From: Podarcis pityusensis
Taxonomy: Eukaryota
Direction: 5' to 3' (one strand)
Length of the DNA: 64,000 bases
Assembly: GCA_964106645.2 (NCBI GenBank)
Contig: OZ067042.1
Under the pieces are notes generated by a model. It had not been told where the DNA came from. It saw only the letters and a list, made by a program, of their open reading frames with translations, and did no database searches. This document shows, piece after piece, positions 16,923 to 19,714 of the stretch (position 1 is its first letter; each line of letters starts with the position of its first letter). Position numbers and translations under genes: made by a program.

Positions 16923-19714
16923 TGAAGCAGAACAGCTTAGAAAGAAAGAAAAGGCTCTACTGGTTTATAAATCTGTAACTTTTAAAATATATTCTTCCCT
17001 CCACTCAACATGATAAACTTCCCAAAGCTCTGTGATCCAGATAACTCCCCCTCCCCATTTCACAGATGTTTCCCTACCCCCTAATGGAGAGTCCCTCCTG
17101 GATATCCCAAAAGAAAAAGATAGGCCTAGTAAGTGAGAGAGGTCAAACATGAGCCCAGCTATTTATTACATATACTGCAACCAGATGGAAGTAACTCATC
17201 CATCAAAGAGCTCAGCGTCCTCATCGAATTAGCTTCTTATAAAAAGCCTCCTGCTCTTCCCTCTGATCCACATGGTTCAACTTCCTTCCCTTCCATGCAC
17301 TTTTGGAAAATGAACCCTCTCTAACCCCGTTGCTGTGTTCTCCTTAAATCATCGCCGCCCATCATTCCATAGCTATATTTAAACTTTACTTTTATCAATA
17401 CTCATCCTGTAGCTGTGGGAGATATTAAAAGTGTACCAGGGCATGGAAGGGCGTTTCTGACACTTGCTCTTTCATTCATCAGCCCCCTCATAGGCCTGTT
17501 GGTGACAATGAAAAGATTTCACAATACCGGTGCAGCAGAAACTCATTCTCCTACTCATCCATCATGTTCAACCTAGCAGCAGTTCTACTGACCTAATCTG
17601 TAATGCCTCGGTGCTCACTGGAGATTTCTTAAAGGCACTCTTCATTGTTGTTAGTTACAAAGAATAAGTCTGTGCTATTAGATAAGGAGACTAAATGGTG
17701 CAAAGATTAATGCAATACTCCCTCATCACCATGACCAGGGTTCAACCACTTGGGTCGAACTGGAACGTCTGTTTTCTGAGTTTGCTGGAAGATCACATCC
17801 GACACTCACTCCCCCACCCCTGGATGAATAAAAATTTAAACCTATTTCAAGAGGTAAATAGGATTTTAGAGGTGCAAGAGCTATGTACCACCGCTAATTT
17901 ATCACTTCTGTCAGCTTTAGGGTAATATGCACTAGTTATTTTACATTATAACAAATACATTAGTCTCTTCTCTAGATAAAGGAAAAATTATGAATAAACT
18001 GTCTTGGATATTTTGATGGAGCAAAGGAATCTTCCCACTCCTTTTGCCTTCCTAGCTCTCTAGTGAATATCCAGCATCTGTAAGTGCAGGAGACATAAAC
18101 AAGGTGGGGGAGAATTAGAAATTTTGCACTTTTTTTATAAGGAGGGAAATAAAAATGGACAGCTGGCTGGATGATTTTATCATGTCAACAGTACCATAAA
18201 AGAACAATGGCAGGACATAGAATAAACAGTTGTTCTGTGCTTGTTTCTCAAAACACCACAACTTAATAGAATGACAACTTGGTAAGAACTTTGATTTTAT
18301 AAATGGTTTATTCCATGAATTCTATGTTAAAATTCCATGAATGTTGATTGCCATGGCTCACTTTGAGCACACATGAACCCTGTTCTAGATCTGAAGATCC
18401 CTTTCCACAAGTAAATGTTTCTTCAGACACGCCAATCATTCTCCTCCTCATGAAGGTCATGATGTTATATGTTTGTTTGTTTATTTATTTTTTTGTTTGT
18501 TTCCCGGTTAATTACAGCTGGGAATATGACTACTAGAACATCACTAATATAGGAATAGGTGCCAGGTTCAGAGAAGAATGGCAATGTAAGCCAGCCCAGG
18601 GCAAAGAGTTAAGTACACCTGCTATAGAGATTTGGAGAATTCTGTTGGAAGCAGAAGTGGAAATTGCAATAATACATGTTTGTCCAAAGTTCAGGAACGG
18701 AACCCATGCTAGCAAATATGACCAATATTCATTACAATTGATCTTTTAGTCCAAAAATGTGATGTAAATAATTATATTTTCTGCATTATTTATACATTTC
18801 CCTTCCATGGAAATGCATTGAAATTAACTACACAGATTACATGACTAATTATGTTAAGTTTTGGCCACAGCAGATAGCAAGTCAAACAACACAGATTGTA
18901 GCAGAAACTGAATAAGTCAGGCTTATTCTACTCATTCCTGTCAAATGCGCAAGAGTGGTGATTGTGCCACACAATTTCATAAGTTTCATGCTGTTCTGGA
19001 AGAGGAATCTCCTCATTCTCATCAACAATTGTATGTTAGTAGGAGAGAGTCCACCGTCAGGTTCTGGTGATGGACAGCTTAATCTGTCTTCTGCAGTTGA
19101 TCCATTTTACTTTGTGCCTAAGCTGTCTAACTGTCTACTGAAGATTGTTGTGTAAATGTGAGAACTGCCTTAACATAACTCAGTTGTGTGGGGTTTTTTA
19201 CAGGAAGCATGAAAGACAAAGAAGAGGCTAGCATCCTAGAAACTCACTTTTTACTGAAGATTTTCGACCAATACTGGGTGGTTACTGCCTGGAATTTTGA
19301 GGCTTCTTGATCATCGCATTCTACTTCAAAGTATATTGGACAGGATCTGCTATTCCTATTGCCATAGTTTGCATACAGATACTTAAAAAAAAAAATCTAG
19401 AATTTATCACTCAATTTTGAAATCCCAAATATCCTGGTCTCATTTTCAAAATGACCGCTCCCCGCTTAAAACGGGGGGCCCCCTTTGCGTGGACGCGTGC
19501 AGCCCCTAGGTCTGGAGCGGCTCCAACAGCATAGGCTTGGTTTGCCTTCCCTCAGGTGGGATACCTGGAGGTCTCCGCCTACCTCAGTCAGTTGTCCAAT
19601 CCCACCTGGGGGAAGCGTTGCCAAGGAGACCAGGCCAGGTAGGGGAGGGATTACCTGCCCACACAATAGAGGGAGGATCTTACCTGGGAATCCTCACTTG
19701 GCTCCAGAGCTTCT

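Follow-up and report, generated by a model that had tools for sequence, protein, structure and literature searches.

The window, a 64,000-nucleotide stretch of contig OZ067042.1 (GCA_964106645.2) from Podarcis pityusensis, contains at 19450 to 22466 a damaged Ngaro retrotransposon without an A2-B2 block; the damaged copy itself is an ordinary Ngaro element. All features given below lie on the plus strand. The initial annotation had called a tyrosine recombinase retroelement here and was right in this. The element opens with repeat A (A1) of its split direct repeats (265 nt, 19450 to 19714), which has a second strong inverted repeat within it (19546 to 19615; 17 nt, 94%, 36 nt apart). Repeat A is directly followed by a 47-nt fragment of a very high-copy repeat (19715 to 19761), recognized by read depth, loose ends, and comparison with loci L094 to L096. 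We take this repeat to be SINE-like. The fragment is the 5' part of its repeat and stands exactly at a deletion of about 4 kb of gag and RT, as judged from the same three loci. It is followed by the surviving 3' part of an RT/RNase H frame (19762 to 20514; a weak RT_RNaseH match, E 0.053), by an open tyrosine recombinase frame (20394 to 21419) with R-K-HxxR-W-Y motifs, for which the closest solved structure is Cre, and by an SGNH/GDSL hydrolase frame (21420 to 21962) of 180 aa versus 202 aa in other copies. The window recombinase deviates at positions 146 and 182, which are invariant in all 12 other aligned copies. Repeat B (22069 to 22466) carries AATAAA at 22364 to 22369, and no A2-x-B2 block comes after it. 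At 22187-22188 the window copy has an 8-nt deletion, seen in 1 of 55 family ends, that removes a segment complementary to the junction described below. We considered this 8-nt complement as a mini-ICR and rejected it: the matches are scattered and 4 to 8 nt long, their place is not conserved across 11 families, and the segment is deleted in the window copy. A search of 19300 to 22600 for known RNA families or ribozymes gave no Rfam match at E up to 1.

Ngaro elements (order DIRS), including the Xenopus DIRS-53_XT type with an SGNH frame, are described in passages of PMC9210276, PMC8547959, and PMC4157794. The elements studied here share the organization given there: A1-ORFs-B1-A2-B2, with gag-like, RT/RH, and recombinase frames and then an SGNH hydrolase, no methyltransferase, and solo AB copies. 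The window copy differs in that it lacks A2-B2 and most of gag and RT. We took 60 of the 131 recombinase hits in the window's own genome as 10-kb stretches and recorded their layout; this count had no reference for the six loci that belong to the closest family. B1-A2 and then B2 followed the recombinase in 33 of the 60 loci, and 29 of these also had A1, so that the full split-direct-repeat pattern of Ngaro was present in 29 of 60 loci of this wider group; another 15 had A1 and B only. Among loci of the window's own family, B1-A2-x-B2 was found in L091, L092, and L098 (in stretches that do not include A1), and A1 and B were found in L094 to L097, as in the window copy. The frames of L094 (555, 577, and 341 aa) are in the order gag-like, RT/RH, tyrosine recombinase on one strand. 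The first of them had no Pfam match, the full RT frame matched RVT_1 (E 2e-11), and the recombinase frame overlaps the end of the RT/RH frame. The SGNH frame matched Lipase_GDSL_2 at E 4e-6 and 5e-7, slightly below the curated threshold, which agrees with the amphibian type. Pfam scans at E 0.01 returned no methyltransferase domain. We rejected membership in the DIRS1-like group, which has long inverted terminal repeats, an ICR, a methyltransferase, and TTT ends, since the only perfect inverted repeat was 10 bp long and the split repeats were direct. Related Ngaro elements form at least 16 sequence clusters in the genome, and in many copies B1 and B2 are 99 to 100% identical, which suggests recent activity. 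A solo copy of another Ngaro family is nested in the own-family copy L092, near oriented position 6657 (reverse strand). Loci L303 to L308 represent a metagenome element with RT and recombinase; split repeats were not detected in the loci tested.

The ends of the window element were as first described. AATGA is found at 19450 to 19454 and at 22465 to 22469, 19485 to 19494 is the exact reverse complement of 22457 to 22466, the longer inverted span is identical at 21 of 28 positions, and a small hairpin lies at 19460 to 19476. A perfect inverted repeat of at least 10 bases between the first and last 100 nt occurred in 10 of 2000 shuffles, and the terminal inverted pair was the longest among 164 in 18500 to 23500 (41 nt, 71%). 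The initial annotation had also predicted an empty site. Four DNA runs were aligned to the region, and one of them, X5 (organism C), contained it: an 894-nt contig joins 19449 to 22465 with one AATGA and skips 3015 nt, with five ambiguous letters at the join. Because this contig joins the flanks, the boundaries are correct. Contigs from runs X1 and X2 pass from flank into element and thus come from an occupied site; the flanks were barely covered in run X9.

We then compared the ends of many copies, collecting 212 distinct right ends and 164 distinct left ends from 268 loci. Right ends finished in AA in 210 of 212 cases. Left flanks read R-B-A-A (n = 164), with a purine at -4 in 150, a base other than A at -3 in 158, A at -2 in 160, and A at -1 in 152. 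That the left AA varies more than the right suggests that it is derived from the target and that the crossover lies just 3' of it; at the window site this AA is 19450-19451. The metagenome set (68 loci of at least 5 kb among the 80 matches listed, with 14 split-repeat loci, all from a single contig set) had AA in 2 of 14 left flanks and A at -1 in 10 of 14. Beyond AA, the right flank matched the element for 0, 1, 2, and 3 bases in 22, 15, 14, and 4 of the 55 window-family copies, respectively. Among 440 exact ends genome-wide, a few of which are internal junctions, AA was followed by A or T 421 times and by C or G 19 times. The part that holds for the family is AA with a preference for T or A at the third place. 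The TGA at 22467 to 22469 is target DNA that matches the element's +1 to +3, and its GA is a chance match. The core is AA, and its extension to AATGA is coincidental at this site. The initial annotation's proposal that the element went in by crossover at a short common core, with no target duplication, was borne out: 110 of 116 solo-like copies had no duplication of 3 or more nt beside AA, and we rejected target-site duplication on this count. Its suggested comparison of flanks, a fixed core versus variable duplications, thus came out in favor of a shared core, AA, and against AATGA as that core.

The repeats and the 5-nt match at the locus, together with an empty site that has one AATGA, fit the earlier picture of a double-stranded circle whose fixed AATGA core is flanked by the two 10-bp repeats as recombinase arms. 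We now regard such a circle as highly improbable. TGA continues after AA at 4 of the 55 family right ends, and a hand count of the first 100 entries among the 421 A/T ends gave A as the third base in 38. Complete copies hold the junction linearly, and this and the family right-end count largely refute the earlier picture. Since the two repeats are 33 nt apart at the junction, with the crossover at the edge of one of them, they are not arms around a core.

The linear junction also changes how the inverted repeats are to be read. They had been thought to meet only after circularization, but the complete copies L091, L092, and L098 hold the junction in the chromosome as B1-A2. Thus, the repeats also meet in the genome and would meet in any transcript that crosses B1-A2. 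We observed no circle and no other intermediate. Of the two roles that had been offered for the repeats, pairing across the end-to-start junction survives, and binding arms of one double-stranded site do not. The junction folds into a single stem-loop. Its outer arm ends in AA, with the crossover directly after it; a spacer of 6 nt then leads to an inner stem that closes a variable loop, and a second 6-nt spacer leads to a partner arm that begins with TT. In the window copy, the 5' arm of the outer stem is the right inverted repeat (22457 to 22466), which ends in the element's AA. Spacer 1 (19452 to 19457, +1 to +6) comprises the element's first bases, of which +1 and +2 are unpaired in the fold. 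The inner stem and its 7-nt loop occupy 19458 to 19478, with 19458 to 19464 pairing with 19472 to 19478. Spacer 2 (19479 to 19484) pairs with spacer 1 and covaries with it across families, and the 3' arm of the outer stem is the left inverted repeat (19485 to 19494). The two repeats first noted thus make up the outer stem, and the small hairpin lies within the inner stem. Position 19480 is C in the window copy and G in most family copies, which breaks one spacer pair.

We found this layout of arm-AA, 6 to 7 nt, inner stem-loop, 6 nt, and TT-arm in all 18 representative junctions, 12 from the window's genome and 6 from metagenome contigs (recombinases 30 to 38% identical). The fold was kept in 11 families of the window's genome and in 5 distant junction types at 30 to 38% recombinase identity; the distant junctions have 7/6 spacers and TTAA-type boxes. 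With an anchored scoring rule designed after the junctions had been seen, 17 of the 18 ranked within the top 3% against the other AA sites in their loci, and the remaining one within the top 10%. Pairing at -5 to -1, +6, and +9 was present in 11 of 11 families, and Watson-Crick pairing next to the cut was found at +1 in 0 of 11 and at +2 in 1 of 11. Over 7 distinct spacers, +3 to +6 paired at 24.5 of 28, a score reached by 1 of 5040 assignments, the true one. By a hand reading on the recombinase tree, paired columns had about ten two-sided changes versus about four breaks across the 11 families, which are related to one another. Spacer covariation is unexpected for palindromic protein sites in duplex DNA and thus argues for a single-stranded fold. 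We conclude that the junction fold is real and conserved and that, on these sequence comparisons, its formation in single-stranded RNA or DNA is well supported.

The plus strand fold was more stable than the minus strand fold in 17 of 18 junctions; in the window family, the minus strand folds slightly better (-23.2 versus -22.0 kcal/mol for the plus strand). The G-rich arm by itself favors plus strand folds energetically. G-T pairs were biased 14 to 0 among 180 scored pairs, mostly through one inherited change at +7. The plus strand is also the RNA strand, and covariation therefore cannot separate RNA from DNA. The hairpin could instead act in the transcript, in packaging, in read-through of the B1 poly(A) signal, or in RT pausing or template switching, while a double-stranded circle is cut at the junction's 5' half, exchanged once, and resolved by replication. 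The transcript must cross B1-A2, RNA folds of the junction score as well as DNA folds, the covariation fits equally, and the plus strand and G-U-type pairs are favored; several families also have AA-6 nt-TT dyads in the double strand. However, a role in the transcript leaves unexplained why the fold is in such precise register with the crossover, why the spacers are fixed at 6 nt, why there is a bubble at +1/+2, and why 0 of 44 copies are permuted. We consider this explanation rather unlikely.

A single crossover point, following AA on the plus strand, accounts for all ends. Left ends kept +1 to +6 with at most one mismatch in 163 of 164 cases, and none of 187 right ends had at least 5 of +1 to +6, as products of a second-strand exchange would have. 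If two exchanges took place over the mismatched 6-nt overlap, about half of insertions would carry +1 to +6 at the right end. A fully duplex circle would have two like junctions, and use of the other one would give permuted copies, yet 0 of 44 A1 starts followed a B end. By the established polarity of tyrosine recombinases, each strand is cleaved at the spacer's 5' end; a crossover before +1, at that edge, thus points to cleavage of the plus strand. The cleavage chemistry is described in passages of PMC3458562, as is the single exchange of a folded strand in attC x attI recombination. The simplest joint account is a transiently single-stranded junction that is folded and exchanged once.

A fold in single-stranded cDNA might also serve to rebuild or ligate the ends, like the DIRS-1 ICR, with the closed circle then made double-stranded, inserted by two exchanges, and its overlap repaired one way. 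This would match the standing DIRS-1 model, in which self-pairing restores the ends according to passages of PMC7192593, and the recombinase is closest to Cre. However, 0 of 187 second-exchange ends would need a complete strand bias of repair, and the split direct repeats already template the junction without pairing. End rebuilding is in our judgment improbable. The same source describes DIRS-1 cDNA, in the parts relevant here, as single-stranded and mostly linear, with a circle junction that could not be amplified, and as antisense, not sense.

Several results count against a folded single-stranded donor. Such a donor is not needed for one exchange that is resolved by replication. The best structural matches of the recombinase were to Cre, and IntI matched weakly (E 6.5e-3), on a structure model whose mean pLDDT of 63 is weak for seeing an IntI-like insertion. 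Raw RNA reads of a related organism on the solo copy L003 were uninformative either way, being sparse and on both strands, with no pile-up at the start, the end, or the junction. An advance prediction, by which the first target base would depend on the element's +1 base or the base opposite it, held in one part and failed in three; 19 of 212 rows were dropped here (17 without a linked A and 2 without AA). As predicted, C was the first target base in 34 of 138 cases in opposite-G families versus 1 of 55 in the window family (p 5e-5). Contrary to the prediction, families with A and T at +1 did not differ (p 0.48), the family with G at +1 had G as the first target base in 1 of 12, and C stood at the first target place in 5 of 30 cases in the closest opposite-T family. 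We rejected a hairpin-pairing rule for the first target base, as it gave a mixed result in the first test and was contradicted in the closest opposite-T family.

Taken on the sequence evidence, the B-A junction hairpin is likely a folded single-stranded recombination site at which the recombinase would cut once, after AA on the plus strand. The proposed pathway starts with a transcript that carries B1-A2 and would template a new B2-A1 junction during reverse transcription. The new junction would be exposed as a plus single strand, as a displaced strand or a cruciform arm, in a circular intermediate; folded, it would consist of an outer and an inner arm with a spacer bubble between them, and a loop. 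The recombinase would cleave 3' of AA in the fold and at a chromosomal RBAA, and one strand would be exchanged. Replication or repair would then resolve the junction, as in integron attC x attI and phage CTX. Integration from the folded plus strand by a single exchange has, in our estimate, a chance a little short of even.

Folded single-stranded recombination has been described for bacterial integrons and CTX phage (in passages of PMC4792948). As far as the passages of PMC3458562 and PMC4792948 describe it, the integron attC/IntI system has in common with the Ngaro junction two inverted box pairs with spacers and a loop that varies. In both, sequence outside the crossover is poorly conserved, one strand is, or in Ngaro would be, cut 3' of AA, the microhomology is very short, and the products are compatible with one exchange. 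All 18 representative junctions have the attC-type four-box palindrome with an unpaired central spacer and a variable loop. The AAC triplet of attC is kept only in its AA: the third place holds T, A, or G depending on the family, whereas attC has a fixed C there. Ngaro further differs in that its recombinase is Cre-like, with no IntI-type extra domain seen in our weak model (mean pLDDT 63), and in that there is no extrahelical base in the families of the window's genome (6/6 spacers; 7/6 in distant ones). Its donor is made by reverse transcription, and its chromosomal targets are many. CTX phage attP/XerC is similar in that a folded single strand mimics a duplex site without extrahelical bases or a specialized recombinase domain (passages of PMC4792948), but CTX borrows the host XerCD and targets dif, whereas Ngaro encodes its own enzyme and is nearly nonspecific. 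DIRS-1 of Dictyostelium, in the description given in parts of PMC7192593, is likewise a tyrosine recombinase retroelement with single-stranded cDNA, short shared end nucleotides, and junction self-pairing; unlike Ngaro, it has long inverted terminal repeats, an ICR, a methyltransferase, and antisense cDNA.

Most copies of the window family are solo A-x-B modules, since 42 of 55 sampled right ends had a flank-bounded A within 1.1 kb. Solo AB copies were already known (passages of PMC8547959). We had considered the copies of about 860 nt as a separate short family and rejected this, because they are such modules. Exact patterns gave 228 starts and 440 ends, and the candidate counts of 1160 and 1204 are not copy numbers. 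The window family has about 440 exact right ends versus about 12 recombinase-bearing hits in its own genome, an approximately 30-fold excess of solo A-x-B; in other families, B1 was present in about half of the top hits. SIRE/VIPER of Trypanosoma cruzi similarly has short A2-B2 elements beside complete ones, of an origin left open in the passages of PMC6681497 concerned; it belongs to another superfamily and another host and bears on solo copies only. Solo copies may be mobilized, or made, as small circles, a question that has been raised for SIRE too. The window copy may have lost A2-B2 by B1 x B2 recombination or by insertion of a one-junction circle. Locus L011 (187 to 2360) is a tandem array of A-B, A-B, and A-x-B with exact B-A junctions and all coding frames gone, and a similar array lies in the same genome at C3:1502440-1504687. 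The x segment between A2 and B2 in L003 (1770 to 1855) has three pyrimidine-rich AG motifs that resemble splice acceptors, and one possibly-RNA contig (X17) skips 1773 to 1832 of L003, ending at AG. These motifs might couple splicing to use of the B2 poly(A) signal.

Elements of this kind, their B1-A2 junction, and their solo copies have been described before. The literature searched, which lay outside the three founding papers of Goodwin, Poulter, and Butler, gave neither a B1-A2 hairpin in Ngaro nor a comparison of it with attC, and we found no paper there that combined a tyrosine recombinase retrotransposon with attC. The passages of PMC6681497, PMC13465315, PMC2632668, and 10.64898/2026.07.28.741278 describe no B1-A2 hairpin, and the Ngaro passages cited above contain neither this hairpin nor the R-B-A-A preference or the single-exchange signature.

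How tyrosine recombinase retrotransposons integrate with almost no target homology is an open problem, and as of 2020 the specificity of the recombinase was without experimental study, according to passages of PMC7192593. The role of the junction as a single-stranded recombination site is testable and unproven, and on sequence grounds we place it just under an even chance. The anatomy of the junction specifies a substrate of about 55 nt, a strand, and a bond to cut, which can be tested with oligonucleotides. It is possible, though we hold this somewhat more tentatively, that Ngaro across animals integrates from a folded plus strand by one exchange, as a eukaryotic counterpart of integron cassettes and CTX phage that is fed by reverse transcription and uses a Cre-like enzyme with a target match of about two bases. 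If true, this would replace the double-stranded-circle model for split-direct-repeat elements and would explain why only the newly made junction is used.
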